Position numbers and translations under genes: made by a program. Shown piece by piece: positions 5,189-26,603 of a DNA stretch of 26,603 nucleotides. This DNA comes from Psammoneis japonica (Eukaryota). Within the stretch, counting starts at the first letter, position 1. Every line of letters starts with the position of its first letter. The stretch is from assembly GCA_008632985.1 (NCBI GenBank), contig QPGO01000255.1:62001-88603 (forward strand), in the 5' to 3' direction. The notes beneath the pieces were generated by a model, which ran no database searches, was not told where the DNA came from, and saw only the letters and a list, made by a program, of their open reading frames with translations.

Positions 5189-5479
5189 CAGGTTCTTGAT
5201 CCCATCCAGCCTGTCATGCTGTTTGAAGATCCCAAGGCAACGCAGAAGTCACTGGAACAGATTGCTGGAGGTGAATTGGGTCATGAACAGGAACTGGTGC
5301 ACCTTGAATTGCTCAACCGTCGCCAAACCGAATGAGTCGAGGACCTTGCATCGAATGCAATCAAATGCAGGGAATCGGGACAAGACGAGCCGATTGAAAA
5401 AGAGAACGAAAGAACCAATCATGCGAGAGGTTGGGTCCTGTGGTTCATTCGTTGCTTCTTTGCAATCGCTTCATTGTGT

Positions 5480-8010
5480 CTGCTTGCTTGGTGCCATGTC
5501 TCTTTGGTTTCATCTTCTGAATCGAAACCGGTTGCGATTCGTCCTTTGGGCGGGATGCCTGTTGCATCGTCTGAGACTTTGATGCTCACTCCGTCCAAAG
5601 CCTCAAAAGCCATCATGATCGCCCCTTCCAGGGCACTTGCGATTGTTCCTTCCAAGGCATTGGCACTGACCATCCCGGACTCCGAGAAGTCTCTGACGAT
5701 TTGTGTTCCGCTTTGGAAGCCGGCATCATTGAAGGCCTTGGCAATCATTTCAAGTCAAGAGCTTGTTGCGTTGGAGGCTGCAACAAGTCGCGTTCCAACT
5801 CGGAAGCTTCTTCCATTGAGAGTGATTGCGCTGCATGTCCCGAGTCGAGGTGTTAGATTGTCGAGGGCTTCTTCTTTTCTTGTCTTGATTCAAGCGAGGC
5901 TCGACGATGCCACATGCGGCGAGGAAGAGGCTGGGCCAGTGACAAGTTGGTGGCCCGCCTTCTACGTTCTTGTCGCTCTCTTCGCAATCTACGTCTGGCT
6001 TCTCTTCTTCTGGCAGATTCACTCTTTGCCTCGAACGATGAACGACTCTCTCTTCCGACTGTCTTCACAATCGGGATGCACGGCTCTGGCGATCAGGCCT
6101 TTTGGTGAATTGATGGTGGCACCATCCAAGGCATTGGCAGTCGTTCCGTTGAAGGAATTGGTGCCTGTCATCCCAGATTTGAGCAAGGCCTTGTCGATTC
6201 GAGTTCCCGTGCCATCTGCTCCAACTGCACCCCTGATAAATTTGTTCACGTGGGTGCTTGTGATGGGCATTGTCTTGATTCTTTTTGGAGTTGTTTGGAA
6301 TCAAAACACGCCTTGTGACAACGAGGAAGGAAGGGATCTGTGCATTCTTCGTGACGGAGACAAGGAAGCTCAGTTCTGGATCGAAGATGTCAAGGAAGTC
6401 AAAGAACCACGATTCTTGCTCTTTTGGATTCGACATTTCTTTGCTGTCGGTTCCTGGATTTTCTTCGTCTGGTGTCTTGCCTCGTCTCCTCGACCAATGT
6501 TCCATTCTGTGAGCTTGTCGCCATCTCATTCTCGACCGACGTCTCTCATGTTGCCCACCGTTGGTGACATGATGACTGTGTCATCCAAGGTGCTTACGAG
6601 AGCGCCCTCAAATGCCGCCCTGATTGTCCCTTCTAAGGCACTGGCGATCGTTCCATCCAAGGCATTGGCGCTGACCATCCCGGAGTCCGAGAAGTCTCTT
6701 GCAGTTTGCGTTCCACTTTGGAAGCCGGCGTCATCGAAGGCACTGACGATCGTTTCAAGTCGTGAGCTTGTTGTGTTGGAGACCGCAGCAAGTCACATTG
6801 CAAGTCGCAAGCTTCTTGTGTCGAAAGCGATCGCAGCGCATGTTCCGAGTCAACACTCCAGGGCTTCTTCATTCATTTGCATGCCTCTGTCATGAGTGCT
6901 GGTTGCAATCGGTTGTGTCTTCATTCAAAAAAGATTCGATGATGCCAGGTGCGGTGAGGAAGAGCCTGGACCAACGATGACTTGGTGGCCTGCCTTCTGC
7001 CTTCTTGTCGCTCTCTTCACAATCTGCGTCTCGCTTCTCTTCTTCTGGTGGTTCCACTCTTTGCCCCGAACGATGAGCGATGCTGTCTGCCGGCTGTCTT
7101 CACATTCAGGATGTGCGGCTTTGTCAATCCGGCCTCTTGGTGAATTGACGGTTGTGCCATCCAAGGCCTTGATGGTCATTCCGTCGAACGCGTTGGCACC
7201 GATGATTCCGGATTCGAGCAAGGCCTTGTCGATTCGAGTCCCAATTTTGGGGCATGCGGCCGCTGCATCTGTTCCAAATGCCGCATCAATTCATGCACAG
7301 AGTCAGGAACACGTGCTGTCAGCCCCATCTACATTCCAGATAATTCCTTCGAAATGGTTGCTTGTGATTGGGCTTGTCTTGACAATCATCATTTGGCTTT
7401 CTTGTGCTCCAACCATGCCCAGTGACATCGATGAAGTGGCGACTCGCCGAGTGCTTTGCGATGGAGACGAGGAGGCTAAGGTGTGGATTAAAGACGACAA
7501 GAAATTCAAAGAACCACGAAGCTTGCCCCTGCTGATTCGTCTTTTTCTTGTTGTCAGTTCCTTGGGCTTTCTGGTCTTGCACCGTGCCTCTTCTTCACGA
7601 TCGATGAGCGGTTCTGTGGCGATGCCGCCATCTCACTTTGGATCGACGGCTTTGGTGGTTCGTCCAAGAGGTGAACTGATGATTGTTCCTGGCAAAGCTG
7701 TCATGGTTGCTCCTTCCAAGGCCTTGGTTGTTGTTTTGTCCACGGCTCTGGCTCTGACCATTCCGGATTCCCAAAAGTCTCAGGCTGTTCGTGTTCCACT
7801 TTGGAAACCGGCATTGTCTGAGGGATTGGTGATCATTTCAAGTCGGCAGCTTGTTGCTTTGGAGGCCATCACAGATCGTTTTCCGCCTCGGAAGTGTCTT
7901 GCATTGAATGCTTTTGGGCTTCACCTTCCGAGTCGAGCTGTTGTGATGTCGAGGTCATCTTCATCTGCTTTGATCAACGCGATTTGGTTGCTGGCAATGG
8001 GGCTTCTTTG
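5480..8010 (+). repeat. Internal tandem duplication, ~2.5 copies of a ~1.0-1.1-kb unit, itself built of related ALAIVPSKAL-type subunits
   Basis: VPLWKPA-encoding anchor at 5705, 6710 and 7793 (periods 1005 and 1083, both multiples of 3). The DDAxCGEEExGP..WWPAF block occurs at ~5900 and ~6935. Confidence 0.9.
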
Positions 8011-8739
8011 GATTGCAGTTCAAAATTGCATCGCTCCTGATGATGACAATGATGAAGAGCCTTTTCTAATTCATCGTGTACACGACGAAGACGCCGTTCA
8101 TCACCAAGACCCGATTCCGCCGCATCCCATGCCACCGGATCCTCCGATCCATCCTCAAGACCCAGGCCCTCCTCTTCAGGCCGAGGATGGCTTGCTGCCA
8201 CAAGATCCCCTGATTCAGCCGCCACCACTGCCACAAGACCCCCATGTTCCTCGTCAACACCCCATCCCAGTCCGCAGTTGTAAGCCACGAGTTCTTCGGC
8301 GCTCCGCCCGTCTTGACAATGCCGTTGGTAGCGTGCACCTTCATTCCGAGAACGCTTGCGTGCTTCGTCGGTCCTCGAGGTTCTCGTGCCGCACTTAAAA
8401 TGCCATTTCTCCAGTCTATTGCGGAAGCTGATAGCAGGCGGAAGCTGATGGCAGCCGGAAACTTCCTCCAGGGCACGTTCACGTGCATTCCTACCGTAAG
8501 GAGTTGGCCACAACTCTACGGCGCGGAGGGCCATTTGTTTGAGCGATTGTCCTGTCTTCAATGGAGCTTGCACGCACCTGCTGAGGCGGGGTAGGCATTC
8601 TTTTGTTTGACCTACAAGCTGCAAGCTTCATTGTTGATGTGCCACTTTTGTTCTTGCCTCGAGATGGAGACGGTATGTTGGTGCTGATTGTCGGACCCGG
8701 CAATTTGGGATATCGTTTTGTATTGTATTCGCATGTTGT

Positions 8740-9385
8740 TGTTGACGGGATTGCATTGCTGTTTCGCTGCGCCATCTTCTTGTTTGCTTTCGTCGTTGCT
8801 ATGATTTGTCATTGTTTTCGGATTTCGTATCGTATCGTTGTTGGAAGTGTGCTTGATGCTTGACCATGTTTGTTGCGTTGCAAATCATAATGTTGCGCTT
8901 CTGTGATTGCCGGTATCGTAGTCGATTTGCTCTTTTTTGCTTTGCTATTGGTGGGGCTCGTTGTCGTTGCTTTGCGGTTGTTATGCTTTTGTTTGCTGAT
9001 TAAGTGGCTGCAATCGTGCGTCTTTTTTTGTGTCGGCATTTGCGGGGTCATCGTCGATGTTTCTGCTGCTCCTTTTGCTGGCTGGCGGTGCTCTCATTGC
9101 CTGTGTTTGCGGGTTTGTTGTTTTCGCTTTGTATTCTTTGCTGCGGGGTTGCATATTACGTCGTCTTGCGTATGTTTTCTCGGTCGTCGTTGTTCTTGCT
9201 CCTGTTTGCTGTTGTTGTATGCTTTGTTTTGCATCGCTGTTGGAAGGTTTAGTCTTTCGTCATTGTCGTTTGCCACTGCCGATTAAGAACTTGTGTCCTT
9301 GACTTGCCAGTCCTTGCTACTCACATATTTCCCTTGTTATAGCTATGGTGGTATTCCGTCTTGATCCTCTAGCTCTCAAGAGGTG
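8740..9385 (+). repeat. T/G-rich dispersed repeat, copy A
   Basis: Shares TCGCTGCGCCATCTT, GCATTTGCGGGGT.ATCGTCGATGTTTCTGCTGCTC, CTGCGGGGTTGCA and TGTATGCTTTGTTTTG.ATCGC with copy B. The last two blocks also occur in copy C. Confidence 0.85.
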
Positions 9386-9409
9386 GTTGTCGGACCCTGC
9401 TTTTCCCAT

Positions 9410-9880
9410 GTTGTTGTTTGACTGCGGATTGTGCTGTTTCGTTTTGTATCGCTGCGCCATCTTGTTTTGTTTGCTGTCTTTTGGTTGCTATTCTTGTCAG
9501 TGTTTGCGGGTTTCGTTTCGTATTGTTGTTGGAATTTTCTTGATGCATGATTGTGTTTGCTGTGGTGCTAAATTACATTGTATTGTGCTTCTTTGATTGC
9601 GGGTGCATTATTTTGTGTTGCTTTGCTGTTGTCTTGCTTTTGTTTTTTGTTCCCTGATATAGTTGCTGCAATGTTTCGTTTTTTTGTACCTGCATTTGCG
9701 GGGTTATCGTCGATGTTTCTGCTGCTCTTGTCATTGGCTGCCTGGCTTTCGTTGCCTGTGTGTGCGTATTTCTTTTTTTCGCTTTGTATTCTCTCTGCGG
9801 GGTTGCACATTTCTCGATCGTCGTTGTTCTTGCGTCGCTTTGTTGTTGGTGTATGCTTTGTTTTGTATCGCGGTTGAAGG
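9410..9880 (+). repeat. T/G-rich dispersed repeat, copy B
   Basis: Collinear diverged copy of 8740-9250. Confidence 0.85.
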
Positions 9881-9934
9881 GTCGTCGATTGTTTCTGCTG
9901 CTCTTGTTGTTGGCTGCTTGGCTTTCGTTGCCCG

Positions 9935-11812
9935 CTACCGGCGGACTCAACCGGTCCCGCTGCCTCAACCGGTCCCGCCGGCTGACTGACGGACGCTCGC
10001 TAGAATTAGTACGTAGCCCTACGCACAAGCCGCCGCGATGGATGAGTTTGAGAGTGCCGCCACAACGCAATGATAACGCAAAGCGACTTCTTTCCGAAGG
10101 ACATGCGATACAATCCTACCCTTGAAGAAAGCTAGAATACTAGAAGCTATACAATCATATCTCTAAAGAACAACAAAATGCTATAAGTCTATAAGTCATT
10201 TCAATGGATTGCTTATCGTCGTCAACGGACAACGCCGAAGATGCCGCGACGAGTCGAAAATCACAAAAAAATTGATCTCTTACCTTTTGCGCCAAGTTCT
10301 ACTCTAGAGTGGCACTGTAGCACTCTAGAGAGTAGTAGCCCTAAATAGAGAGGCCATCCGCACGCACACCCACACTAACTAACTCTACCAGCGAGAAGAA
10401 ACAGCACGTTCGCCCCAACTCCATCTGTGCCCTGGTCCAAATTTCATCCATTGCACTTGTACCTCTCTACACCCGACTAGGAACTGAGTGCTCCAGGATC
10501 TGATTTCCCCATATGAGCAAAGAGTATCAAAAGATATCTGTCATGTAGAACATGGGCCTGGAAATGCCACTGCAAGCTTTAACGGTCAACGACAGTCACA
10601 CTGGAAAATGACAGGCAAAATGAAAATATGAGTGGAACAACGTACACAATAATAATCCATTGGGGTTACATGTCACAGTATACTCACTAGGGCACCTTTT
10701 AAATGTAGAGCTGAGTCGCCTTACTAATTTTTATGCCCCCAAGTAACATCAGCGGTTCGTGGCATCCGCGCATTCAAGAGGAGGCGATGAACCCGCCAAC
10801 ACAAGCCTCAACCTTCCCATTTTACCCATTGCAAAGCCTAGAGTCGTAGTTACACCACAAAGATCTCCCAAAATAACGTGGACAATATTGTGTCTTAGAT
10901 AATGATGATAATGCGGTTGAAGGGTAGGTGGAAAGGGTCAAAAAGGACCAGACACCTGTGCGCATGATCGAGACGCACCAAAAAAGGCTCGTGAGGTATG
11001 CAAGTTTCGTCAAAACGAGTCCAAAACTCAATCAATCACAACATGCTCACAGGGTTACCTTCTTTGGACTATGGAAAGGCTGTCTGACAAATGCCAATGT
11101 CGTGAGTATCCCCGAGACTCCATCGCATCGTTTTGTTCCCACGGCATGCACTTTCAAGAAATTGTTATCGCCGAAAAACGACATGCTGTGATTACGAGCC
11201 GACCAAGACCTTCAAAAACATATCAAGCTTGTCACAAGTCCAAATAAATAGTAAAAATAGATGTACCAAAAGATGTGGAGTGGGATGAAGCACAAGGCTC
11301 CCAAACGGATGCGCTTTTGTGATGACGACGACGTGAAAAAGATGCCAATATTGCAGATGCAATAATCGACCGTACGAGACGATATATCCTCCTATGAAGC
11401 TGTAACAAAGCACAAACAACATCTTTAGTGAGTAGATAAACGGTATAAAATGAGAAAACACAGAAAGAACTTACCACGGCAACGTTGTCGACCATTCAGA
11501 TGTCACCCGTACCGTGCAGCAATCGAGTCACGAGTCGAGGCACGCAACCGTTTGTACCGTGTGTCGCCACCAAAGCCCCCCAGGAAACCAAACCAATGCA
11601 TCAACCTATTTATAACAACGATAGAAAAAGATCCCACATGAAAGATACATCGACCCAACGATGTATGCCATGGCGAGATGCATCAAAGTACAACATGCCG
11701 TTTTCAATGCAAAATCGGGACCGGTTGAGTCCAATCGAATTATTCGACTCTCGTGCTTCACCGTGGTGAAATTTCAGTCACGGACGCCGGGACCGGTTGA
11801 GTCCTCCGGTAG
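9935..11812. mobile_element. Non-autonomous DNA transposon, 1878 bp, 25-bp terminal inverted repeats, CCCG target-site duplication
   Basis: Left TIR CTACCGGCGGACTCAACCGGTCCCG (9935-9959) matches the reverse complement of 11788-11812 with 1 mismatch. CCCG flanks both ends (9931-9934 and 11813-11816). Extra subterminal copies of the core lie at 9964-9977 and 11716-11732. No transposase ORF is recognisable. Confidence 0.88.
11400..11474 (-). other. Putative 75-bp intron inside the TIR element
   Basis: On the minus strand: GTG|GTAAGT donor, CTACTCACTAA branch-like motif and TTTGTTACAG acceptor. Confidence 0.5.
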
Positions 11813-12039
11813 CCCGTGTGTTCGGGTTTCTTGTTTTCGCTTTTTATTCTTTGCTGCGGGGTTGCATATTTCGTCATTCTGCGTGTGCTTTCTCGATCGT
11901 CGTTTTTCTTGCGTCGCTTTGCGTTTGGTGTATGCTTTGTTTTGTATCGCGGTTGGAGGGATTGGTTCTTCCTCTTTGTCGTTCGTCAGTGTCGTGTGTG
12001 AATTGGCGGTCATGTCTTGCTGCGCATCACCATCCTTAT

Positions 12040-12804
12040 CTACTCACCTTTCTTTCCCTGTTATAGCTTCGGTGGGATTCCCCCTTGTAAGACCGGCTCT
12101 CAAGACGTAGGACCAAGGTGAGTGCCTATATTTTCGTGATTGGATGCTTGTTGGTGCGTCTTACTCTTTTTGGTTGTATTCACTGGAGCCTCTACACCAC
12201 CATGTCAAAACATCCATTTCGAGACTACAATCGCCTTCAACTCAATCTGTCCCTCTCACGACGCTCTACTCCATCCACAACGTTTCATTTGTCACCACAA
12301 AACCTCCAAATCGCTCGCCCAATACCTCGAGTTCGTCCTGTCCGTCCTTTACTGAGTTGTTCTCTCTTCACCACGATTTCTCTATGATCACTCTCCACCA
12401 CCACAAATTCCTCTAGTTCGTCATGTTCGTCCTTTATCTCTCTTCCGACTCGTTACTCCCTCCACGATGTTTCATTCGTCACCAAAACTCCTTCACATCG
12501 TTCGTATTCGACATAAACCACCCCCTCACCTCCAATTCCTCCAGTTCGTCTTGTCTACTGTACTGTGTTCCATCTATTCTCCATGATCCTTCTCCACAAG
12601 CTGATCCTTCTCCACAAGCTCCAATACCTCCAGTTCGTCTTGTCCGTCCAGTGTTGCGAGCCGTCCATGCCACTCACTCAATCTACTCGCGAGTAGGGTT
12701 TTGCTAGGCGGTGACACTGAAGGTGAGTAGTGTGTGCTTTTGTCCTATCGTTGCCACATTATTTCTGTTTTCGCTCGTTTCACTAATCACTCGCTGTTTC
12801 TTAG
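12040..12804 (+). other. Chain of splice signals suggesting a multi-exon transcript without a long ORF
   Basis: Acceptor CTCAC..TTCCCTGTTATAG at 12066, donor AAG|GTGAGT at 12118, possible acceptor at 12696 or 12707, donor AAG|GTGAGT at 12723, branch CACTAAT at 12781, and acceptor TTTCTTAG at 12804. Confidence 0.45.
12265..12650 (+). repeat. Degenerate C/T-rich repeats plus an exact 18-bp tandem duplication
   Basis: AATWCCTCNAGTTCGTCNTGT at 12321, 12406, 12534 and 12623. TGATCCTTCTCCACAAGC at 12584 and 12602. Confidence 0.85.
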
Positions 12805-12876
12805 GTTTGGAGTGTGATCCTTCTTGGATTGGATCGCACTCCAAACCGCCGCTCTCTCACCCCCCCCCCCCCCCCC
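12804..12876. other. 17-bp-stem hairpin followed by a C17 homopolymer
   Basis: GGTTTGGAGTGTGATCC (12804-12820) pairs with GGATCGCACTCCAAACC (12831-12847), with one T:G wobble and a 10-nt loop. C run at 12860-12876. Confidence 0.85.
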
Positions 12877-14109
12877 AAGGTCTCCCTCCCTTGATCCCTC
12901 ACAGGTTCGAATTGGGCCGTAGCCTCATGTCGATACACAAGGTTTAAGTAACAGCGGGTCCCGCCCCGCGCCTTACGTTCCTCGAACAAAATGTGGACCA
13001 GGAGTTTATCGACATTTGGCTACGCGACTTTAGTAACCCTTGTCAGGCCGTGCCTTATCTTGTACAGTAGTGCATTGATAAGCTTTTAGAATATGAATAA
13101 GGAACTTCTTTCCTTGTAGGAGCCGGCTAAGGCAATTCAGTCTTCTTTGGATCTAGTTTAATAGCTTGAAAAAATGTTTCTCTAGTAAGCATGTTGAATG
13201 GTTACGTAACAAATCATCTGGTCCATGCCGATTTGTTACATCGTGCGATCGTCTATTGGCTCTTGCATTCGTGGGCGTCGAGGTACAACATGTAAACCCA
13301 CGTCTTCGTTCGTCTCCCTCTTCTTTAGATCTGCACGTCGACAGCCTCAATTTTTCCCTCGAACAGCTAGTTCCAAGATGCAAACGGAACAACGCTTTAC
13401 TCTCCTCTTGACAGTTTCCATACGTCATATCATGGAGTGTCCTTGCTATTCTGAATTGCATGCGCCATCGCCATTTTCCCGTGTCTTTGTTCTCCCTAGG
13501 TTTTCTGTTGCCGACGGCTGCCGACCTCCGTCCAATTGAAAGCACGTTTATGGAAACGCTGTGCCCAAAACACAAGTAAAAAGGGTGAGAAATCTGCATG
13601 AGACAAAACATACCTAAGAAATATGGCATAATAAAGCGGCGTCACGATGCTATAAATACCCAGTACTGCGTACCCAATCTCATTGCCGCACGGTCGCAAT
13701 TTTTAGTCGCAGAGTAAAATAAAAATGCTGCCAATTGTCACTTGGTAAGCTCATCATCCGCTTGGAAGACTAATCTGTGAGTAGTTCAGCATCTTCTGAT
13801 CGACTATGCAGGAAATGTCTTGAGTGTCTATTGCTTTAGTCGTAGCCTCAACCGATCCCTTGCTGATCGATCAACCTGCTTGGAAGCGCATCATCGCGGG
13901 TACGTCGACAAAGAGGGACCCATCTACTGACTTCGCGTGGGAACAATGGTGCGCAGCTCAAATGAATCAGCAGTTCAGGTGGCCGAGCAATTTGCATCAA
14001 ACCAAACTAATAGCCATCAAATAGCCCCTTTCCAACTTCTTTTTGTCTGCCTCCAGTCCTTCGCTTCTGCCTCTGCTGTCACAATTGGCGGCAGCTCCAG
14101 CCCGTCTTT

Positions 14110-14890
14110 TTAAACGCTCGTTTCCAATTCACGTTCCACGTCTTGTCTAGACTGTAAGGGTTGAGTTGAAGAAGCACCTCGTTTTACATTGACATGCAAC
14201 TGTCCTTCACTATCCTTGAACTGCGGTGCCAGCTGTTGCAACGTTTGTTCCCAACGCCCCAGCCGTACGGAAATCTTGCAAAATCCTGCGTGATGCATCC
14301 TCTGGACTCCCGCGGCACTTGGAATCCGCGAAACGAAACAACATGCCTTCTCGTGCAAGGAAACGAATCGATCCATCGTCTGTCGGCTGAAGCTCGAGAG
14401 GATCAAAGCCACAGCGTTCCTTGACTTTGGCCTGCCAGTTTGCAAATGTTGTGTCTTTTTGACAATACCATGAAGCTCGGTAAATCTCGTCGCCCAAGTC
14501 AAACTTATGACAACCGTATGCGACAACAGAGGGGGGTTCCATACTATCCGCGTCATCTTCGTCAAAGAAGGGGTTCGGATACTCAATGTCCTTTCATCAA
14601 GGGCAGAGCTAGAATCGCCATACACGTGTCGGTCAGAGTTTTCCTCGAGACTGACTTGTGGGTTAAGGTGAACGCCGTCCGAGCGCAGGTTTGTATCCCA
14701 CCGGAATGGGGAAAATGTTGCAAATCAAGAAGAGTCGACCGGACATAACACCAATCATTTTTTTTGTTGGCCATTGCTGTAATTTGTAACGTTCCCTGCG
14801 AAGACGTCCACCAAGACGCCGCCTCAGAAGCGAGACTTCTCAGAGGCGTCAAAAGCCAAAACAGTTGCATTACGCCAATACCGCAATGCA
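14110..14890 (-). pseudogene. Probable frameshifted gene relic of unknown function
   Basis: Protein-like stretches in alternating frames: ...EENSDRHVYGDSSSALDE, then KDIEYPNPFFDEDDADSMEPPSVVAYGCHKFDLGDEIYRASWYCQKD... No recognised domain. Confidence 0.3.
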
Positions 14891-15378
14891 ACTCATGGAC
14901 GGAAAGGACACCACGCGGTTACAATAGATCCAATGAAACGTTGCGATAAATCCACAGAGCCTGAGAATCCTCGACCGGGCGTTCAAACAAAACAAGCGGA
15001 GGTAAAACCATGGTTGTCGAAATATATCTATTTGATGAATGGAACACCTGCGCAGCTACGGAAATGGCGACAAACGAAGCTCGTAAGTCTATCATCGAGC
15101 AGTCAAAAGGGATGTATCAAACAACAGATGACTTACCGGTGGTGCTGTAAAATGATGCATGTGTTATATAAGTACCGGAATTGCAACACGGGTGAGCAAC
15201 ATATTTTAGCAACAAGGCTGCTGCCTGGACGAACAGCATGCGTAGTTGAATGACGATTTCAAACATTTATGACCTGTTTCTCCCATTTCTAAGGATTGAC
15301 GTGGTTACAAGTAGAGATCAAGCTTCATGATTGTATTTTACGTGAACGATGTGGATCGGACAAAGACAAGATAAGAAG

Positions 15379-15930
15379 TTAATAGGTCGACGTACCTGCT
15401 TCAGCATCGCTCCAATTACTCTCGTGAACAGGTTCCTCGTCAACAACCTTTGCTACGGCTTTGCTCGTATTGGTTAGCTCGGCCGGCGAATGAGTATCCA
15501 GTGCTGTATTGTAAGAGAGTTGCAAAGGTAAGCTGAAGCACAAAGAGAAGACAAGAAGCAGATAGATACACGCCATTCATCAGAAATCATCTCCACGACG
15601 GTCCATGTTGTAGTCTTGTAGAAGTCGTAATAGAAAGAAGGATTCAACGCCAAGGACACCTGCACATGATTCAGGATACTGGCAATACCGGTAGCCCTTG
15701 AAGTTGATTTGATTGTCGAAGTTCCGACGGCAAATGCTTAGCATATCCTCCAAGTTGATTTCTCGATCCAAGAAGTACGCTACAACTTGTACCGGTGTCG
15801 TCATGGCCATGGTCTTGCCCTCGTCATTGGCTCCAAACAGCTAGGCAGCGATTGTATTCAAGGCAGCTCCTCCTCTCGCCAAATCGTCCACCGAGTAGGG
15901 CTCATCCACCTTTGCCATGTTGTCGAGGCC
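15379..15930 (-). pseudogene. Possible disrupted gene fragment ending in a hydrophobic segment
   Basis: Consecutive short protein-like ORFs (15580-15810, 15474-15665, 15379-15576) in shifting frames, with an in-frame TAG upstream at ~15841. Confidence 0.25.
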
Positions 15931-16242
15931 ACAACGTATCCTTAGTATTCCCGAACACCCGTCTTGGAGTTTCTTACTTTGCGGTGTCAAGAGAGAGTCG
16001 ATCTATAACATATAGCAAAGAAAAAAGCGACAGGAGGGAAGTTGTAAGCAGATATACGGAGAGAAACCTTCCTGACCAGCATATGTACTTCCGGCCATCA
16101 ACAAAGTAGACTGCCGCAGCAACGAGAATGCAGTGTCAAAATACCTACGTTTAAATCTCGGAGTGCAGGTTGTACGCTATCACGAATTTCTACATTTGCG
16201 CTCGAGAGATTACTGAGAAGGATTTGTCGGCATGATCAAACG

Positions 16243-16521
16243 TTACTCCGTTCGTCGGTTCTTCTTCTTCTTCAAGGCTGTATTCATATCGGCCAAGGCA
16301 GAGAAGGCATCTGCGCTTGCCGTAGCACTGTCACCACTGCTGCTCTCCGATAATGCCAACAAGAATGAAACAGCATGGCCATGGCGACACTGCACCGTCG
16401 TTGATACAACACCAAAACCTGTCGCTGGATACAACAGCAATACTGTAACAGCAATGGCGTCGTTGCTCACCACTTCGCTTCGTCGGCGGAACATTCGCAT
16501 CGACATTATGGCACCTGGCAC
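16243..16521 (-). CDS. Possible N-terminal fragment of a gene with a targeting-peptide-like start
   Basis: 92-aa ORF with a hydrophobic stretch followed by a Ser/Thr/Ala-rich segment. No homology recognised. Confidence 0.2.
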   Translation of the reverse strand: MPGAIMSMRMFRRRSEVVSNDAIAVTVLLLYPATGFGVVSTTVQCRHGHAVSFLLALSESSSGDSATASADAFSALADMNTALKKKKNRRTE

Positions 16522-18099
16522 TGTCGTGTGGTCACCAAATAGGTTATGAATTCCAATCGCGCGAATTTGCCTGCGCTTTGTACAATATCGTCAGTGTGTA
16601 TTCAGATTTATTCTTTCCTGAAGACTGCAAATGACATTGTCATTACCGCGGTCTACATCATTGTTGAACTATATAAATCGCATCATGCATTTCAAACATA
16701 CAGCGCCTGACATTGTACATTCGAAAAAATCCGGAGGTTTCTCGTGTTCTTCAGTGTAGAAAATCGAGGGAGATGATGATGATGATGCTTTCATTTTATT
16801 TGAGAAAGGACAGTCAGATCAAGATGTCAGCAGATCTGAGACCTTACAGTTGTCAGTGCCGGCATGTCATGCGGTCTTGTGGATGTGAAGCACAGCTTCT
16901 AGAAACTGGATTCTGTGCTTTCTCCGTGACTCACATTGAACTTTTTCGTGCTGTTGAACTTTTTCTTGAGCCTTCAGCAGTGTTGGAGAGGCTCGGTGCG
17001 AACCAATCATTTTGGTGAGTGCTGGCGGTCCACCAGAGTGAACGGAAATGGAGCTCCCTTTCAAACCAGGAAGTGTCACTCAAAGCAAGACCGCGCCTTT
17101 GCGCTCCACATCGCCATGGGCTGGATTGGAACACATTGCTTTGAAATTGATTTCGTGCCATGCAGGTTCATTGGATTTAAGCCACATCAAGCGTGCTGCA
17201 CTTGTGTCAGCGTGAAGCATGGCTCTGCTGGTGCTTGTGGACAAAAGCAAAAGCGAAAGGCCTTGGTTGGGCTTTCTCGACAAGACTTCTGCTGCGCACT
17301 TGGAGAACACATGCAACCAAACCAATGCACGACAGCTGGCCCCACCGACAAGAGTTGTCAAGGTTGACATGTGCCATCATCAAATGGCAATTTCACTTTG
17401 GAGCACAGTTGCGAACATTTGGACAAGCGGAGAACCACGCATGCCATGTGGTGGAAAAGATCTTGGGAAGAAATTCTGATCCCGTCGGTGGAATTGGATC
17501 CAAACATGAAATGATTGAGATTGTTGTTGGCAACCTTGCATGGAAGCAGCTTGGCTGGAATCCCACCACAAGTCGCTTGGTCAATGCAGTCTGCTGCACA
17601 CTGGCACTCCTTTCAACAATGATGACCACGCTGCAAAACGTGACAAAGGCGCTCACTTGGCACATGCTGTGCTGCTTGGAATTGGACAGTGCTGGTGGAG
17701 ATGTCTGACTCGAGAAAGCAGTCTCTCAAATTGTTGGGTCAACTTGGATTTGCCAGAGGATGCAATGGACAGAGAAATCACAAGGGCGACCCTGACGAGT
17801 GGACATCAAGAAAACCATTTCTCGTGGTTTGCCAGCATGACCAACTCTCTTGCTGGGTCACTCGCCTGGTCACTCAACAACCGCCCCAGCAAAGAAATGA
17901 CCCCCTGAGTGACAAAACGTCATCAACAACTGTCTGACCCCTCTGCCAGCCAGTTGCCTCTAGCCTCAGTTTGGCTTTGCCATGTGATTTCTCAAAATTC
18001 CCCGGGATTGCCACCTTTCACCCTGTTTTTCTGCGGGAAGGGTGAACTTGCCATTTGTCACATGTGGGCTAAATGCGTGCATAAAAAAATGCATTGGCA

Positions 18100-20720
18100 A
18101 CTCCCGTGCTTCCCCTCTTGCACATTTCTGCACGTTCTACATGCCAGGATGTGCGGCAGGAGCCAGACAATCCCCTCCTCCTCTGGACCCGCCTGAGATC
18201 TCTGAAGACGACCTGCTCTCAACACTGAGCAAATGCAAACCAGGAACTGCAGCTGGCCCTTTTGCACACTCAACAGACTTTCTGAAGGCCCGCTCCTTTT
18301 ACAAAACATCTGCCCCCACCAAAACACAAATCCGTCCCCACCTCGTCCCAGCCTTTCGAGACTTTCTCCTCCTCCCACTCACCAACTCTGTCCCTCCCGA
18401 TGCATGCACCATCACTCCTCTCCTCCAACTGCTTTGTTGCCCTTCACAAAGACCCAACCAACCTCAACAAGCTCCACCCCATTGGATGTGACACCACCCT
18501 GCATCGCACAGCAGGCACCCTCACCATGACACAAAATGTCTCCAACTTCACTGACTGCCTCCTTCCTGATGGCCAATTCAGCATCGGTGTAAAAAAGGCG
18601 GGCTCAACCACCTCATTCACACTGCTCACGCCAACATTGAATGATGTCTCAATGTGTCTGTTCCATCGCATGCCTTCCTCTCCCTTGACCTCACAAACTT
18701 TTTCAATGAATGCTCCCGAGACACCTGTCACCAACAACTTGACACCATCCCCCAAATGCAACACACCTGCTGCACATCTTCAATCTTTTCTGCAATGACC
18801 CCAACAAATGCTGGTGTCATGACCCCACTGGCACTTGGCGCTCCTTCCTTCAATCTGAAGGATTCTGCCAAGGATGTCCTTTTGCCTCTCCTTTTGTGGC
18901 GCCAGTCCTCAGAGTCGTCCTCAAACAACTCAACCTTGAACTCTGCCAATGCCTCCCCTCTTCCAACATCACATCTGCAGCTTCCCTCATTGACGACACC
19001 AGCACATGGCTGCCCCACACCTGACTGCCATGGTTCATTGAACATCTCACTGAAATCACCCCTGCACGGTGTCCACCTCAATTGTGACAAAACAACAGCT
19101 GTCCTCACCTTGATCACCAGTGATTCCCCTCTCCCACATCTCCCTCCTGCACATGCCACTGCCTTGCACAAAGCTCTCTCCCTGCTCAACCCTGCCAATG
19201 ACCCCCAACTCTCTCTCCTGAAATTGCCACTGGCAACCGCTTCCTTGGCTGCTTCCTTGGCCAGCCCATCGGAAGCGCGGAATTTGCAAGCACCTTTCTT
19301 GAACAAAAAGCTTCCAAGTTCCAAACCAACCTCAACTGCCTTTTGTCCTGGCTGCATGACATCCAAACAAAAAGCACTCTCTGCCATGCATGTGCCACAT
19401 CCTCCCTTCTACACCTCCTTGCCTCTGACATCTGCTGGCACAACTTTGACCCAGACAACCCCGTTCACACCGCGTGGACATCACCTTTCCAACAAGACAC
19501 TCAGTGCTGCTGTCACAACTTTCTCCAACACCCAACACCTCACCGCTCACCAAGACCCTCTTCCACCACACACATTGCTCCTCTCTCACCTCCCTGCATC
19601 TGCTGTGGCATTGGTCGTCAATCATTGACCATCAGCACCACACCCTTCTTTGCTGCCCAACTGACCCATTCCCTCCGATGCATGTGCAACCCACGGCCTC
19701 ACCACCTCTGCTGATGAACCCCAACTCATGCCCCCCTTCTGTGCCTGTTCCCTCTGCACATGGGCTGCATTGAGACAATCCCTCCATCTGCATCAAGCAC
19801 TCTGTCACCATGGCAATGCTTTGCTGCCACACCTTGACCCCCTGCCTCCCTCTCTTCCTGCTCCAGTTGAATCTTTTCCACTCAAGACGCTCCCTCACGC
19901 CATGTGTCACCTGCACTTTGCCAGCCAACTTAACCACCCGCCATGGCCCGCCACACATCACCACTGCACTCTCATCCATCCTTTCACCCTTGACAAGCCT
20001 CCCATTGCACACTCTCTCCTGTTCCACAGCTTCCCAATGTCTGTTGCCTTCCATCTTCCAACTCACACCACAAGAACGTAAACTGCGCTTGCCCATCTCC
20101 TCTGATCAATCCACCCCCATCCTGTGCCCATCTTGCTCTGGCACAGTTGACCCACATGGTGATCATTCCTTTTGTTGCCACTCTCTTGGTCACAAAACCA
20201 CCCCATCCAACTCCCTGCGTGATGGTCTTTTTGCACTTCTCCAAACTGTTGGACCCCTGTCCGGCCAATGTGCCACCTCCTTGGACAATGTGGTGCTGCT
20301 GTCATTGCTTCCTCAAATGATGCTGGCATCTGCCTTGCACCGTTCACCATTGATCACCTTGGTTCAACCGGCTGCTTTGCCCATTGCCTCCTCTTTGGTG
20401 ACACCCAAACACATCCCCTCCCTCCCCCTCCCTGGAACTTGGAATCCTCTTTACACCGCCCATCTGCTTGTGATGCCTGTGCCAATGCCCAACTCTCCCC
20501 ATCGGGCCTTCTTCCCACTGCCACATCTGCCTGGAAAGCCATCACCTTGACCAGGTTTGGTCTCACACACCACACCACCACCCCAAGCCAGTGGGCCTTT
20601 CAGAATCTCAGTCTCACAGTTGCCAAATCCCTCACTGGCCAACTTCTTTGCTGCTCCATCAAACTTCAATCACAAGTTGCAAATCCAACAAGAGAACCCT
20701 CCCATTCCCCACCTGCATGA
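18100..20720 (+). mobile_element. Degenerate non-LTR retrotransposon, CRE-like (RT, Cys/His knuckle, C-terminal tail)
   Basis: Frameshifted motifs in the expected order: KPGTAAGP, FVALHKDPTNLNKLHPIG, LLPDGQFSIGV, LSLDLTNFFNECSR, QSEGFCQGCPFA, LIDDT, GVHLNCDKT, RKLRLPI...CPSCSGTVDPHGDHSFCC...SNSLRD, and PFTIDHLG. The endonuclease core appears deleted near 20280. Confidence 0.8.
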
Positions 20721-20984
20721 CACCATTTCATCCCACTGTGCTGTCTGCACTCCACACCACACCACTGGGTGACATTGCACACACGTGACCTTCTCACACA
20801 CATGCACTCCAAACTGTTCATGACAAAAACAATCGACCGACCACAACGAAAATGGGCAACACGCCATGGCACATTTGCAACACATTTGTGATGGCTTTTG
20901 CCTGTCAATCATGACACCGTTCAATGCACTCAACAATGTCAATTGAACAGGATCTGTGGCACAAAACACAAGATGAAACATGAT

Positions 20985-21355
20985 TGCTCATGTGCAGAAT
21001 GCCAGTGCAATTGAGGCATCAGTCGTCAGTTGTTCTTTTGTTGTGAAGTCCAAAATGCAAGCCATGAGGTGTGCATGCAGCAAAGGCCAAGGCAAAAGTA
21101 GAACCACGCATGGCCAATGACAACAACATGTCAGATTGAATAGTCTCCCTCATTCTTCCAATTGACACATCTTGCGTGCAGAATGAAGGGGATTGTTCAG
21201 ATCAGCTCTTGTGTCATGCAGTCATGAATGCAAGCCATGAGGCATCTAGAGTGAAGGACAAGGCAAAATTAGAACTTCACATCGCTGACAAAAATGTGTC
21301 AGATTGATTGACAATGTCATTTTTCCCTTGGACCTGTCTCATGTGCAGAATGATG
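20985..21355. repeat. Degenerate tandem repeat, ~170-185-bp period, ~2.2 copies
   Basis: GTGCAGAATG at ~20992, 21176 and 21343. ATGCAAGCCATGAGG at 21055 and 21228. CAAGGCAAAA.TAGAAC and TGTCAGATTGA each occur twice. Confidence 0.8.
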
Positions 21356-21782
21356 CATTGGATCTTTTTTCCTTCTTGTGTTGTGTGGTCCCAAATGCCA
21401 ACAACAAGTGCTCCAGAGCAAAGGCTGGGGCACAGATGGAGCCGCATGTGAGCAATGTCAATGTGCATGATTTAATGGCAAAGTTTGTTCTTCCCTTGCT
21501 CCACCACAAGAGGCCACTTTGTGTCAATTTGTTGATTGCATCCATGGTCGTTGCCCGGCTGTGCTGGATGAAAATGAGAAAAAGGCACACCAGCCTAACC
21601 CAGATCAAACAGGAATCACCGCAATGCACTCATTTTTTGTTCCCCTCCCCAAGCCCGTTTGGTCATTCCTTCCCACCAAATTGCCCTCATTTCCCAGAAA
21701 TTCCCCAAAAGGGCAGGGCAGTTCTCTCTTGCCCTTGCCATTTTGGGGGATGCCAAATGGGTAAAACCAAACTGAGCCTCTG

Positions 21783-22011
21783 GCAATCAAATCACAAGTC
21801 GAGGCATGCAATTGTTTGTGCCACACTGAAGGGCGACCAAAGCCCCCCAAGAAGCCATGCCAGTGCATCAAGCACTTCACAACAACAACAGAAAAGACTC
21901 CCCACAAAAAAAAAGTTGACCCCTCTGTGTCTGCCATGGTGAGATGCATCAAAGTGTGTCAACATCAACAGGTGCCGTTTTGTGCAAAATCTGGAACAGT
22001 CCAGTTGAGTC
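21783..22011 (+). mobile_element. Mutated relic homologous to the right subterminal region (11519-11732) of the TIR element
   Basis: Collinear matches including ACCAAAGCCCCCCA, TGCCATGGYGAGATGCATCAAAGT, TGCAAAATC and GTTGAGTC. Confidence 0.85.
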
Positions 22012-23383
22012 ATTTGCTTCTTGGATGAAGGTCAGATGATGTCCATGAGCCACCCTCATTTTTAAAGGCTGCGGCTTCTTATGTGAGATCTTTTGCAAGT
22101 GAAGCTGCTGCACGGCTTCCTGCATGAGACCTTTTGTGCACACATGGAACTTTGCTCAACTTGCGATCAGCAAAACTTCATCCAACAGCCAAAGCAGAGC
22201 GAGTGCACAATTGTCAGAAACTGGCAGAGAGATGCATCATGTTGTTTTTTGCAGTGTGCAGCCAACACCTTGTGAGCACAAGTCAAGTGCTCACTTGACG
22301 CCAAACCAGCAAGCCCTTCAGGAGGAGTGGGGCCATCGAGTGCAGGCTCAGTTTGAGGCAGGCTCAGTTTCAGTTTTGCGAAGATCTCTGCAAGATCCCA
22401 ACACCAGCTGCAAGGAGAAAGATTGCAAGGAGCAAGCCAAGGTGCGCAGAAGCATTCATGAAAAAGCTTTTTATCAAGAAGAGCAAGCCACAGAGCAAGC
22501 AGAGTGAAACCACGAAAACCAGCTGTTCCTCAACTTTGTGAAAGAATTTTGCAAGAGCAATGCGTGCAACAACAGTGATTTCAACAGCTGCCTTCGTGCC
22601 TTTGCAGCTGCCAGCATGGCTCCTTCTGATGGCAATGATGTTGGCTGTGAGTTCATCTTGTTGACTGTTTTTGGTGTTTTGCAGCAACCCAATTTCTGAC
22701 AACACAAATTGCTTCTGCAATCTGCTTCTCAGAATTGGCGGATGAATGCATGAAGATGATGTGGGTGACGATGCAGCTCACTGTGTGGAAGGTGAAGAAA
22801 AGTGTTGCAACCGTTTGATGGATTTTGTTGCCTGCATTGATCATGTTGCCACCAACCTCAACCAAGACACTGGGTTGCAGTTGAAGTGCTGTTCTCTTGC
22901 TTGCTTGAACAGAGACACAGCTTTCATTCAGAGAGGGCTCATTCTCAGAAGTTGTGTTTTTGCCCCCCAGTCTTTCAAAGCTTGACCACATTCCTGTCAA
23001 AAGTTGACAGCTCCATGTGACACTCTCTTTCCCTCTCATGCAAATCATCATCATCAGCTTTGTTGTCATTCATGGGAACATGAGTGAGTCTGGTTTGTCT
23101 GTTGAAAAAGTCTGCAGAAGCCATCCGACATCAGACCTTTGACTCCATGTCTCTTTGTGGACGATTTCAGAAACTCGGCCTGTTCCACCACTTCAGACAC
23201 ACACGTGGCATCAATTGTTTGCTGTGAACAAAGGGCTGCCTGAATGGCTTTGAGGCATGCAAACCAAAGCTCATCTTTTGGCAATGGCACAACCAATGCA
23301 ATGCATTGGAGTGCATCCATTGAATCTTTTCACAACCCCACACCATCAAAGTTCACTTGTGCCGCTGCCCCCCAAGATGACTG

Positions 23384-23920
23384 GGACATGGCTTCTGTGT
23401 CACAGCACGCTGAAGAGCAATGCAAATCTTCACCACTGAGAAAAGTGCTTTGTCAGCCTTGTTCTGTCTTCTTGGTTGCAAATGTGGCTGCACTGTGTCC
23501 TCCAATGCCATTGCCAAAGGAGGTGGTCACCAAGTTCTTCCCTTCATCCTGCAACTGCATGACAGAACAAGTGCACAACCACGGTGATTTTGTTTGTGAA
23601 CAACAATGCATCCTCCTGCAGCAACTCTGTGGTGTTGGTGAGCCTGCTGCCCCCATGAGATGAGGACATGGCTTCCATGTGGCACTTGTTGTGCTGAAGA
23701 GCAATGCAAAAAATCTCAACCACCATGCATTGCGCTTTGGCAGCCTTGTTCTTTTCAGGCGCAAACATGTCAGCACTGTGCCCTCCAATGCCGTTGCCAA
23801 AGGAGGTGGTTGCCAACCAAGTTCTTTTCTTTCTCCTTGTGCTGCATGACAGAGCAAGTGCACGGCAGCAGCGACTTTGTTTGTGAACAGAAGCATTCCC
23901 TCCTGCAGCAACTCTGTGGC
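23384..23920. repeat. Diverged tandem duplication, ~280-287-bp period
   Basis: GGACATGGCTTC, GCTGAAGAGCAATGCAAA, TTGCCAAAGGAGGTGGT, CTGCATGACAGA.CAAGTGCAC and CTCCTGCAGCAACTCTGTGG each occur twice in the same order. Confidence 0.9.
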
Positions 23921-24099
23921 ATCTGCAAACTGTCGAATGTTGCAAAACAAGAAAATGCGCACAATGGCAGAACCCTGGGAGCAGAAAAACAGAGTGTCTT
24001 TCTTCCGAACTTTTTGCAAATTGCTCTGAATGATTTCCATGCCAGCACTGCTGAAACCCACTTGCATCAAGGACCCGATGCAACTGACGGCAGACATCA

Positions 24100-25470
24100 G
24101 AAACAAACCAAGCGCAGGGAAAGATGGAAGTGTGAGTTTAAAATGTCATTCCACCTGAAGTGATTCCACAACTGCGCAAACTGCAACTTGCGTTTCCATT
24201 CTTTTCAATGCTTCCTTTGTCCAGCACAAGTTCTTTGTCAACAATTGATCTTCTTTGTTTGCAAAGTCTTTGCAATGCACACTGCTCTGACAACCCAGTG
24301 GGTCATCTGCAAGCATCCCGGGCAATTGAGTCATTTGCTCAATGGGAGTCACAGCCAGTGTCATGACCAGACCCACAAATGCTGTGACTCAAAAGAGCCA
24401 AATGAGCAAAACACAAATGGTGGTCAGGAGTTTCACAAGAGCAGCATCACAAATGCACTCACAGTTGGTGAAGCAGCCTGTGGCAGTTCCGCTGTAGATT
24501 GGACTGTCCTTGTTGCCCTTGACTGCAATGTGGAAGAGCTCCCAGTCCCCAGGAATTCACAGACCATGCTTGGCACTTGTTTGCACAAACCAGGCACAGA
24601 GCTTGTAAGAGCAGCATTGAGAGCCTGATTGCAAACCCTCCAATGGCCATTTGACCATGAAGGACAATCATCATGGACAGCCACGTGGTGTCATTTCTCA
24701 GAACAGGCAAAGAATGGCGATGCATTGTCCCATCAATTCACGCATGGTGCCACCAACTTGAGACTCTTGCATCTTGGCATCAAGATTTTGACAAGCCCTT
24801 CTTGACATTGTGCTGGTGCTTCCAGAAAGTTTCTTTTGAACAGAGCCATCAGCAAATTTGCTTGCCGCATGAGCCAACGGATCATTCCTGGAAGCTGTGT
24901 CCTGCACGTTCTCAGGAAGATTGGTGGCAGCAATTTCTTTTCTTCGTTTGGCAACACACCAATGTGAATCAAAAATGACACCACAAAGCCCTTGAAGCCC
25001 TTTTGTTGCATTCTGGTGTGTTGCTTGGCTTGAATGGTCAAAATGGCTCCCAGGGCCAAGATGTTCCATGCATCGGCACTCCCAATCCTTTTGGCGGCAA
25101 CAACTTTCTTTGGGCTCCTTCTGCTTCATTCCAAGTTTGTTGTGAAAAGGCTTTCATCTTCTCACAGCAACACATTGGTTTGAGCCATTGGAACATTGAA
25201 TGTGCCACAGACACCTTGACACAAGCAGTGCCAGGTTTTGACATGCAGCTCTTTCTCCCAAACACGTCCACAAGCAGAATTCCATCCCATGTGATTTGGT
25301 GCATCACAGCAAGAGGCTCAAAATGAGCAGTTCCTGAGTCTTGGTTGTTCCAACTAGAATGACATCCATCTTGACAATCTGATTTTTGTGACAAAGCATG
25401 GTCGCTGGTGCCATCCAATGCCACTGCAAAATCCTTGGACTTGAGTGCATCAAACATTGACAATGTGATG
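24100..25470 (-). mobile_element. Possible hAT-like transposase relic
   Basis: Weak motif resemblance only: FAVALDGTSD (~25401-25430, like the first catalytic Asp motif) and LKLVAPCVN*WD (~24727-24762, like the xRW motif if the TGA derives from CGA). Confidence 0.3.
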
Positions 25471-25924
25471 TAAAATCCAGCTCATGCGTGACCTGCTGAT
25501 TTGCCCTGTTGTTCCTTGGGTGTCCACATGGTGAAATCAAAAGCAGAATGAGCTGCGCCCTCATGCAGAGCACTTTGCCACCACTGCAAGTCTTCCTTGG
25601 CCCACACCACCGTCAATGTGCCACCAACAATGGGCTCTCAGCTGGCTTGCTGCTGCAACTGACTTGAGTCTTCTCTCTTTGCTGCATGCTTTGCTTCTTC
25701 TTCATCATCAATGATGGTGGCTTCATCCACAATCTGCTTTGCAGGTGAGGTCACAATTGCCCTGAATTTATGAGCATCATCCCAAGCACCTTCTCTGTTG
25801 AATGTCCACTGATGAATGACAAATTTTGGCTGGCTGAAAACATGCTTGTTGATTCACTGTTTCACTTGCAAAGAGGAATGAGGTTGTGCATTGCTTGGGT
25901 GGGAGAGGGCAACGCATTCTGCCT

Positions 25925-26603
25925 TGAATGACAAAAATGACATGTCCAGCATGAGACTTGACAGATGCACAAGATCCTGTCTGTCCTCAACAGAGCAGAG
26001 TCTCACAAAATTGGCATCAACACGCCAGCCGATTTGTTGATCTGTGGCAGGGACTGGGATGAGCCCTTTGTCAGCTGCGCCATTCAAGTGTTGAAGAGTG
26101 TGTTTGACAGTGACAGCGTGGGAGGCCTTGAGAAGTGCAGGAGAACCAAGTGACTTGATGGGTGGTGCAAGCGATGTCAAGATGGCTGTCAGACACTGGA
26201 TGCTGCGTCAATGTGCCAACCACAGATCGGCAGTTGCAAGGTTTGTTGTTGCAGACTGGCAGCATTGGGACAATCTAACGGATGTCTGGGACAGATGACA
26301 ATCGTGTGCCAGATGAGAAAGAAAGTGGGCAAAGGAGAGATCATTGGATCTCTCCATGCTGTCCATGCCAGTCTGTCTGACACAAGGGAGTGCACTCCCC
26401 ATCTCGGATGTCTGTCATGCCAAGAGATGGGCCTTCTGTGTCACTGCCAACAGAACCAGAAAGTGCAGGAGTGGGAGCTCCATTGCAGTTTTCCATCATG
26501 GCTGCACAAAGAACTTTCTCAATGAGGCCAGTCTGGGTGAGCAGGAATTGGTCATTTTCCAGCTTCTGGATCTTGACACACAAGAAGTTGCCGACTTCAC
26601 CTT
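25925..26603 (-). mobile_element. Degenerate Ty1/Copia LTR retrotransposon pol fragments (RT C-terminal half and start of RNase H)
   Basis: GEVGNFLCVKI...LLTQTGLIEKVL..MENCNGAPTP; CRSVVG..L...SHLDIACTTHQV; KASHAVTVKHTLQHLNGAADKGLI; VDANF..LCSVED.QD; and, after a frameshift, SVKSHAGHVIF. Confidence 0.88.

Follow-up and report, generated by a model that had tools for sequence, protein, structure and literature searches.

Repeat-induced point mutation (RIP), as it operates in Neurospora and other fungi, changes C to T mostly at CpA, creating TpA. A process that destroys TpA has been described in Bigelowiella natans, where integrated giant-virus and virophage DNA undergoes hypermutation restricted to this dinucleotide (Mettrop et al., bioRxiv 10.64898/2026.01.13.699255, 2026). 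According to the preprint, two integrated viral regions accumulated 231 new mutations, of which 230 were A:T→G:C; every one of the 230 fell at TpA, and they arose in only some of the mutation-accumulation lines (bioRxiv 10.64898/2026.01.13.699255). Since they were directly measured in these lines, TpA-only A:T→G:C hypermutation exists as a process, and the parent change of TpA to TpG or CpA is in print only for B. natans. Here, we describe the TA dinucleotides that survive in two TA-erased blocks of Psammoneis japonica DNA. The stretch analysed, hereafter called the window, comprises 26,603 nt (contig QPGO01000255.1, positions 62,001–88,603, forward strand) and reads as eukaryotic.

The surviving TA sites probably reflect the sequence preference of a TpA→TpG/CpA hypermutation whose rule involves the flanking bases on both sides. 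To the process known from B. natans, this locus adds replication in a second domain, a quantified effect of the second flanking base, a tally of mutation direction, and a model test that favours a two-sided rule over a preference TAY→TGY. A mutational fingerprint of this kind is the most direct handle on a mutator, open to comparison with the preferences that candidate enzymes show in vitro. It also allows the same process to be recognised in other genomes.

Context of the surviving TA sites

Domain 1 (D1, 4370–8060) retains 12 TA sites where ~132 are expected, and domain 2 (D2, 16850–26603), which extends to the end of the window, retains 29 against ~381. Per kilobase, the observed-to-expected ratio (obs/exp) of TA is 0.00–0.10 in 17001–26603 and 0.05–0.07 in 5001–8000, compared with 0.42–0.90 in the remaining window. 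Among the dinucleotides that end in A, only TA has been lost: AA stands at 0.95–1.40 and CA is raised. TG and CA are in excess in both domains, with obs/exp of 1.67–2.57 and 1.34–1.86, respectively, in D2. The change is therefore confined to TpA, as in hypermutation of the B. natans type. The only other depleted dinucleotide is CG, and this in D2 alone (CpG obs/exp 0.15–0.48, as against 0.82–0.84 in 5001–8000 of D1). Because D1 is TA-erased without CpG loss, the CpG decay in D2 is a second process, separable from TA erasure.

The edges of the blocks are sharp, falling within about 100–150 bases. TA is dense up to 4362 and up to 16845–16900, and sparse beyond. In B. natans, too, the blocks affected consist of foreign or repeated DNA while their neighbours are normal, and the same arrangement of blocks is found here, the foreign or transposable-element (TE) nature of the sequence being unproven. 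Boundary strips (4361–4369, 8061–8299 and 16741–16849) were placed outside both the domain and the flank sets; they hold the TA sites at 8067, 8079, 8281, 16757, 16797, and 16845.

An exact count gives 32 TA sites in 16741–26603, of which none is in an RTAY context (R, purine; Y, pyrimidine), 13 (41%) are YTAR, 9 are YTAY, and 10 are RTAR. A preliminary description of this DNA had put the survivors at about 30, with no RTAY, about 40% YTAR, and the rest YTAY or RTAR, and these figures hold. It had also stated that D1 follows the same pattern apart from one GTAC near 8078, which is likewise borne out. The 29 sites of D2 proper divide into 0 RTAY, 13 YTAR, 7 YTAY, and 9 RTAR, and the 12 of D1 into 0, 5, 5, and 2. 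The GTAC (8078–8081) is the only RTAY in the vicinity of either block and sits at the right edge of D1, where TA becomes denser again.

The undepleted flanks (1–4360 and 8300–16740) contain 512 TA sites, divided among RTAY (143, 28%), YTAR (79, 15%), YTAY (142), and RTAR (148). By chance, RTAY and YTAR had been expected to make up a quarter each. With YTAR at only 15% in the flanks, its excess among survivors is therefore stronger than was assumed. The background was also checked in 12 normal 4-kb segments. Three of these lie in the window, and the other nine come from three metagenome contigs with genes related (36–47% identity) to the window's diphthamide synthesis (Dph) gene. RTAY accounts for a share of 0.19–0.37 of TA in these segments and YTAR for 0.11–0.22. 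No TA-poor block was found in the three metagenome contigs, which were used as background only. The probability of drawing no RTAY is 7.5e-5 for D2, 0.02 for D1, and 1.5e-6 for the 41 pooled survivors. Overall, NTAN counts in depleted versus flanking DNA (window and related contigs) show survivors that are unlike the background (three-class chi-square, pooled survivors, p = 5e-7).

Ancestral TA numbers per context were estimated from the N-YR-N totals of the domains multiplied by the flank TA fraction. These totals are usable because transitions within a pyrimidine–purine step leave a pyrimidine–purine step. Overall survival of TA is 7.6% in D2 (of ~381) and 9.1% in D1 (of ~132). By class, survivors number 0 of ~139 RTAY, 23 of ~284 mixed sites, and 18 of ~91 YTAR. 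It is very probable that the erasure of TA depends on context.

The context extends beyond the adjacent base. Each TA site was read on both strands, which yields 82 half-sites from the 41 survivors. A purine follows TA in 71% of survivor half-sites and in 44% of those in the flanks, while the second base (+2) is A in 56% and 30%, respectively. Symmetrised, A at +2 reaches 62% in D2 and 42% in D1, against 30% for flank TA sites and 23–25% for TG and CA sites within the domains. Because the in-domain TG and CA sites have only 23–25% A, local composition is not the cause of the +2 excess. The bias at +1 and +2 is thus a direct observation, and it is made in both domains.

TAGA (19) and TAAA (18) are each enriched about 3-fold among the 82 half-sites, and TAGG is not enriched. 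TAGA is the most enriched of all (19/82 vs 79/1024). Among the pyrimidine-flanked half-sites, relative survival is 0.22 for TACC, 0.16 for TACT, 0.76 for TACG, and 0–0.62 for TATN; TACC, TACT, and TATT span 0.16–0.28, and TATA is absent. A TARA half-site (TAGA or TAAA) is present on one or both strands of 24 of the 29 D2 survivors (P = 1e-9) and of 8 of the 12 D1 survivors (P = 0.0056), whereas 142 of 512 flank sites have one. D1 therefore replicates the pattern first seen in D2, and the spared consensus is T-Y-TA-R-A. Examples are the surviving TA sites inside the palindrome TCTAGA at 16898–16903, 21245–21250, and 4879–4884 (octamers TTCTAGAA, ATCTAGAG, and CTCTAGAG). Two others lie inside TTTAAA at 22061–22066 and 24137–24142 (octamers TTTTAAAG and GTTTAAAA), and the counts agree with a sparing of TA that stands between a run of T and a run of A.

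One-sided and two-sided flank rules

The preliminary description took the pattern to fit an enzyme-like preference TAY→TGY. Under such a one-sided rule, a TadA-like single-strand deaminase would strike A in 5'-T-A-Y-3' independently on each strand, so that RTAY offers two targets and YTAR none. The survivors themselves cannot separate the rules, because RTAY has two targets and YTAR has none whether the A is struck in T-A-Y or in R-T-A. A duplex rule that involves both flanks makes the same prediction as either. The fingerprint can nevertheless distinguish the two kinds of agent, since a single-strand deaminase should produce a direction bias and independent strands, whereas a duplex-reading agent should produce no bias and flanks that multiply.

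Material for comparison is available in repeat copies within the window and in contigs from sequencing runs. D1 contains three diverged repeat units of ~1 kb, with paired copies at 5601–6207, 6606–7242, and 7694–7975 (+ strand, within 5601–7975). These are 75% identical in bases and 94% identical in purine/pyrimidine space, and their alignment includes 16 TG-versus-CA columns. In D2, a depleted repeat copy at 21781–21958 (+) has an undepleted counterpart at 11517–11692 (+), to which it is 71% identical in bases and 90% in purine/pyrimidine space. The undepleted copy carries TA and CG states that were lost in D2, and the differences include GTAC→GTGC, ATAA→ACAA, ATAG→ACAG, TTAT→TCAC, and several CG→TG/CA. 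Divergence between old repeat copies is mostly due to transitions.

D2 is present in one public sequencing run (X1), in which most of its bins are multi-copy (depth 135–5356, vs ~57–68 for single-copy contigs). Most differences between D2 and paralogous X1 contigs are transitions (A>G 362, T>C 406, C>T 315, and G>A 328, as against 49–80 for each transversion).

Only the product formed in YTAY and RTAR sites, TG or CA, separates a TAY rule from an RTA rule. Five events are of the TAY→TGY type (YTAY→YTGY or RTAR→RCAR). Three of these are CTAC at 5963, 5990, and 7330 in D1, each of which faces CTGC in the sister unit, and the other two are the ATAA→ACAA and ATAG→ACAG changes between 11517–11692 and 21781–21958. 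Four events are of the opposite type (YTAY→YCAY), namely TTAT→TCAC in the same pair and the sites 24751, 7414, and 8800 relative to X1 contigs, a comparison in which 3 were direction-informative among 40 of ~1995 differences. Several pairs were dropped from the tally as ambiguous on the grounds of adjacent transversions or flank changes (14010/14011, 21141, 21247, a GTAT/GTCT pair, and two poorly aligned TA sites in the 11.6-kb/21.9-kb pair). The tally over nine copy pairs is 5:4, where the fitted one-sided rule predicts 73:27, and it fits no bias slightly better than the one-sided rule.

The second test concerns the joint effect of the two flanks. Each half-site was assigned to P (TARA), M (any other TAR), or V (TAY), and three-parameter models of equal size were compared. 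Survivors over expected sites are 0/143 for VV, 6/194 for MV, 17/96 for PV, 3/33 for MM, 10/32 for PM, and 5/14 for PP. An independent-strand model, in which rates add, is rejected (G2 12–15, df 3, p 0.002–0.008; lnL −16.1 at p = 0.002). A site-level model, in which rates multiply, fits (p 0.27–0.57; lnL −10.6 at p = 0.35). The ranking is unchanged across six choices of ancestral counts. The misfit of independent strands is visible directly in the counts: ~2.7 RTAY-type survivors are predicted and none is seen, while ~9.7 of the PV type are predicted and 17 are seen.

Two ways of rescuing independence were considered and ruled out. Unequal exposure of segments fails because any mixture obeys s(PV)^2 <= s(PP)*s(VV), and the values are 0.031 on the left and at most ~0.014 on the right. 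Segments exposed on one strand are equally ruled out, as the protective half-site lies now on one side and now on the other along D2 (13 runs vs 11.0 +/- 2.2 expected).

A one-sided rule is a possible but rather unlikely explanation. It agrees with the class order of the survivors (RTAY 0, mixed 23, YTAR 18), yields a fitted kY/kR of ~2.7, and accommodates the D1 sites with CTAC in one repeat, since 3 of 3 show CTGC in the sister. Moreover, a 5' T and a 3' C appear as a family trait in the account of TadA (dependence on UACG) and TadA-8e (dependence on UA) in PMC12296453. Against it stand the rejection of independent strands with TARA classes and the four opposite events. In addition, TAT is no less sensitive than TAC, other half-sites are more sensitive than TACG (0.76x), and the +2 base matters. 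Of the proposal TAY→TGY, the strong, non-chance context effect stands. Its one-sidedness is neither supported nor rejected by the direction tally, the effect is not restricted to the +1 base, and the independent strands that it implies are rejected. It is true that TAY is the set of tyrosine codons, although this carries no mechanistic weight.

On the reading that we prefer, a DNA-level A:T→G:C hypermutation at TpA would have swept two sharply bounded blocks of the genome. The rate per site would be highest at 5'-R-T-A-Y-3' and lowest at 5'-T-Y-T-A-R-A-3'. Both flanks would jointly set one rate for the whole TA step, in a palindrome-like manner, as expected from an agent that reads or opens the duplex. 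The A of each strand would apparently not be struck independently according to its own 3' neighbour, and the choice between TG and CA would be made without visible context bias. A mutator that reads intact duplex DNA would be expected to produce a pattern like the present one, with a palindromic rule, protection of both strands by a single flank, and no bias between TG and CA. That the flank rule is two-sided rather than one-sided is a conclusion we hold at slightly better than even chance. The agent would presumably be an enzyme, and it could be one that deaminates adenine in DNA, whether TadA/ADAT-like or another deaminase, although we place this somewhat below an even chance. Our best guess is that the process is aimed at silenced or repeated DNA.

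A number of points weigh against the two-sided hypermutation. The survivors number only 41, and the P, M, and V classes were set post hoc, after the survivors had been inspected; with purine/pyrimidine classes alone, the models are no more than 1.7 lnL units apart. Nor is the one-sided rule rejected by the direction tally of 5:4 (P = 0.21). Product composition (YTGY+RCAR vs YCAY+RTGR) is 0.559 in D2 and 0.518 in D1, compared with 0.559 +/- 0.048 in normal DNA, and on this measure the models lie less than 2 SD apart. Ancestral TA was approximated from flank DNA, from related contigs, and by a YR-conserving normalisation, rather than counted in a true ancestor. The agent is likewise inferred, as neither an enzyme, nor inosine, nor ongoing mutation was observed in the window data. 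To our knowledge, no natural deaminase acts on adenine in double-stranded DNA. Furthermore, the high-copy repeat at 9939–11939 (depth 1384–3711 in X1 and 1080–2421 in the run X2) is untouched, whereas some parts of D2 are erased at about single-copy depth (61–123). Because this repeat keeps a TA obs/exp of 0.90 (10001–11000), repetition or high copy number alone is apparently not the trigger. Lastly, a TE origin of D2 is unproven: its frames match no Pfam family at E<=0.01, a phmmer search gave 0 matches, and the lead to RVT_1 is weak.

It is very unlikely that the survivors are later-made TA sites, formed by C→T at CA/TG or by double CpG deamination, with a context that reflects the creating process. 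One D1 column does pair TTAA (7489) with TCGA (6382), and D2 has lost most of its CpG. However, the TG and CA sources in D2 are even (R..Y 504 and Y..R 493 of 2136), so that ~24% RTAY would be expected, and 0 of 29 are seen. CG sites in the domains have no excess of A at +2 (0.21–0.22), and D1 shows the same bias without CpG loss. Moreover, two TA sites are kept at the same column in two old copies (6237/7341 and 21270/21099).

Equally improbable is a read-out artefact, in which a TA modification in silent chromatin would be miscalled as TG on one strand and as CA on the other, the flank rule being the motif of the modifying enzyme. Such an artefact would likewise produce TG and CA in random direction, sharply bounded domains, and a palindromic two-sided motif, and the sole run that contains the stretch may be the assembly's own source. 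Against this, X1 contigs at a k-mer depth of ~57–68 reproduce D2 in 2509- and 2581-base pieces with 9–11 differences, which suggests that the reads are accurate. Old repeat copies also differ at TA sites in fixed, copy-specific ways, and the same spectrum is described with Illumina reads in B. natans.

More improbable still is ADAR-like A-to-I hyperediting of double-stranded retroelement transcripts, fixed by reverse transcription. The T (U) before the edited A corresponds to the 5' preference of ADAR, and both strands are affected, as in double-stranded RNA. ADAR selectivity is merely graded, yet AA, CA, and GA are not depleted in the domains. The erased blocks stop sharply, within ~100–150 bases, beside an intact gene, and D1 is a gene-like repeat frame with no recognisable retroelement. 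In addition, the triplet that ADAR is reported to favour is 5'-UAG-3' (PMC11334849), yet TAGA is among the best-spared half-sites (19/82). Selection against TA (UpA) in functional sequence, through nuclease-sensitive UpA or stop-codon avoidance, is the least credible account: UpA and CpG are reported to be jointly under-represented in some RNA viruses (PMC7879557), and D1 retains a long open frame, but the depletion is ~20-fold, on both strands and in all frames, over 9.7 kb without a recognisable gene, an undepleted copy of one segment lies in the same window, and TA→TG/CA makes no stop except TAA→TGA, so that an open frame would be no sign of function.

Coding content and neighbouring sequence

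TA erasure explains why transposon or gene remnants in the blocks escape profile searches, and long open frames in TA-erased blocks carry no meaning for annotation. Among 12 + 40 + 35 stop-to-stop frames of the window searched against Pfam, the Dph domain is the sole family found. It belongs to an intact neighbour gene with a diphthamide synthesis domain (2471–4201, − strand; PF01866, E = 3.9e-65), which marks the sharp left edge of D1. This gene is an intronless frame of 576 residues that lies 170 bases from D1, with a TA obs/exp of 0.53–0.57 and thus no TA erasure.

The 40 frames of D2 gave only chance-level Pfam matches (E 0.024–0.68), and the phmmer search (18645–19625) was run against 1.84 billion representative proteins. 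Word-indexed searches with the D1 frame 5474–6892 and the D2 frame 23456–24145 (−) gave 0 matches among near-length proteins. The RVT_1 lead in D2 comes from an atlas search, in which 5 of 30 matches belonged to a set with RVT_1 in 10% of its members. Motifs in 17.9–20.7 kb may be reverse-transcriptase-like. On the + strand, 17500–21000 has C strongly over G (GC skew −0.22 to −0.47), far beyond what TA→CA would yield.

The repeat-bearing frame of D1 (5474–8398, + strand) comprises ~970 codons, with a single in-frame TGA (6893–6895) and two tyrosines. It contains the three diverged ~1-kb repeats, which are rich in PSKALA-like motifs. Profile and word-indexed searches detected no Pfam family and no relatives, and the frame may be a gene copy that has been hypermutated or else an element of unknown kind. 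Across the D1 units (5595–7985), there are 59 CG-versus-TG/CA columns and 37 conserved CG columns; where all three copies can be compared, CG is in the minority at 10 columns and prevails at 4. These columns hint that TG/CA may proceed to CG, that is, that A→G may also occur at CpA.

X1 and X2 contigs contain a paralogue of 24748–25017 with fewer mutations, in which TA and CG stand at positions that read CA/TG in the window. In X2, this is the only version present (depth 277.6), and it may be a younger or expressed copy.

Elsewhere in the window, 8500–10000 has a great excess of T on the + strand (AT skew −0.57 to −0.65) and contains internal repeats (8728–9248 vs 9403–9882), with a related piece at 11812–12108. 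An open frame of 629 residues (3–1892) includes 156-base tandem repeats in 437–1549 that are 84–87% identical, and a perfect tandem duplication of 74–75 bases is found at 1960–2108. A metagenome scan with a 24-base repeat pattern returned 0 matches.

Comparison with known systems

DNA polymerase eta introduces errors at WA motifs during somatic hypermutation, and resembles the process at this locus in changing A to G where the A is preceded by T. It differs in that its WA motif includes AA, which is not depleted here (0.95–1.40). We know of no block-wise, near-complete erasure by this polymerase.

The likeness to RIP, which the B. natans preprint also names in its discussion, lies in dinucleotide-specific transitions that ruin repeated or foreign DNA in blocks and spare neighbouring genes. 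The chemistry is the opposite, as TpA is destroyed and CpA and TpG are made, and the raised TpA and lowered CpA of RIP are not found here. In addition, with a high-copy repeat untouched in the window, duplication is not an obvious trigger.

TadA and ADAT2-3 convert A to I, which is read as G, and require a T or U directly 5' of the A, a requirement that is also seen at this locus. Their substrates are single-stranded loops, whereas here both flanks set one rate for the site. Native TadA is described as dependent on UACG and TadA-8e on UA, the latter with no downstream preference (PMC12296453). Neither a special sensitivity of A before C (then G) nor independence of strands is found at this locus, where TAT is as sensitive as TAC (strand classes post hoc, n = 41). 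As to other deaminases, amphioxus ADAT2 acting on DNA is reported to prefer GAA for A and TCG for C, and not TA (PMC10354150). Like the process proposed here, ADAR turns A into G on both strands, favours U on the 5' side, and reads a duplex; it is described as reading the duplex and flipping the base, so that neighbours on both sides matter, with 5'-UAG-3' as its preferred triplet (PMC11334849). It differs in that this UAG preference is not seen here, with TAGA spared, and in acting on RNA, so that fixation needs retro-copying.

Full-text literature searches found no report of TpA erasure in diatoms, and a Phaeodactylum mutation-accumulation paper (PMC6604790) makes no mention of TpA, hypermutation, or transposons. 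For B. natans, the main text of the preprint gives no analysis of flanking bases, although such data may be contained in Figure 2B ('specific mutation motif') or in the supplementary tables, among them Table S2 (bioRxiv 10.64898/2026.01.13.699255).

The closest likeness is nevertheless with B. natans, as described in that preprint. There, too, TpA alone is changed, to TpG or CpA, with a bias towards GC, and the changes are confined to blocks beside normal DNA. TpA-poor clusters rich in CpA and TpG are enriched for transposon domains, and an adenine deaminase has been proposed. Differences are that B. natans is a chlorarachniophyte and that its hypermutable regions keep many TpA (rho 0.45), compared with ~92–93% erasure here. 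The rate has also been measured directly there, while at this locus the process is known from sequence alone. If a natural adenine editor of double-stranded DNA were at work, it would represent a new kind of genome defence, with practical interest for base editing. Tentatively, both systems might reflect a natural duplex-reading editor of adenine in DNA, or a thymine-modifying enzyme of like symmetry, aimed at silent repeats. It would then be an A:T→G:C mirror of RIP, common to algae as distant as the stramenopile studied here and the rhizarian B. natans.

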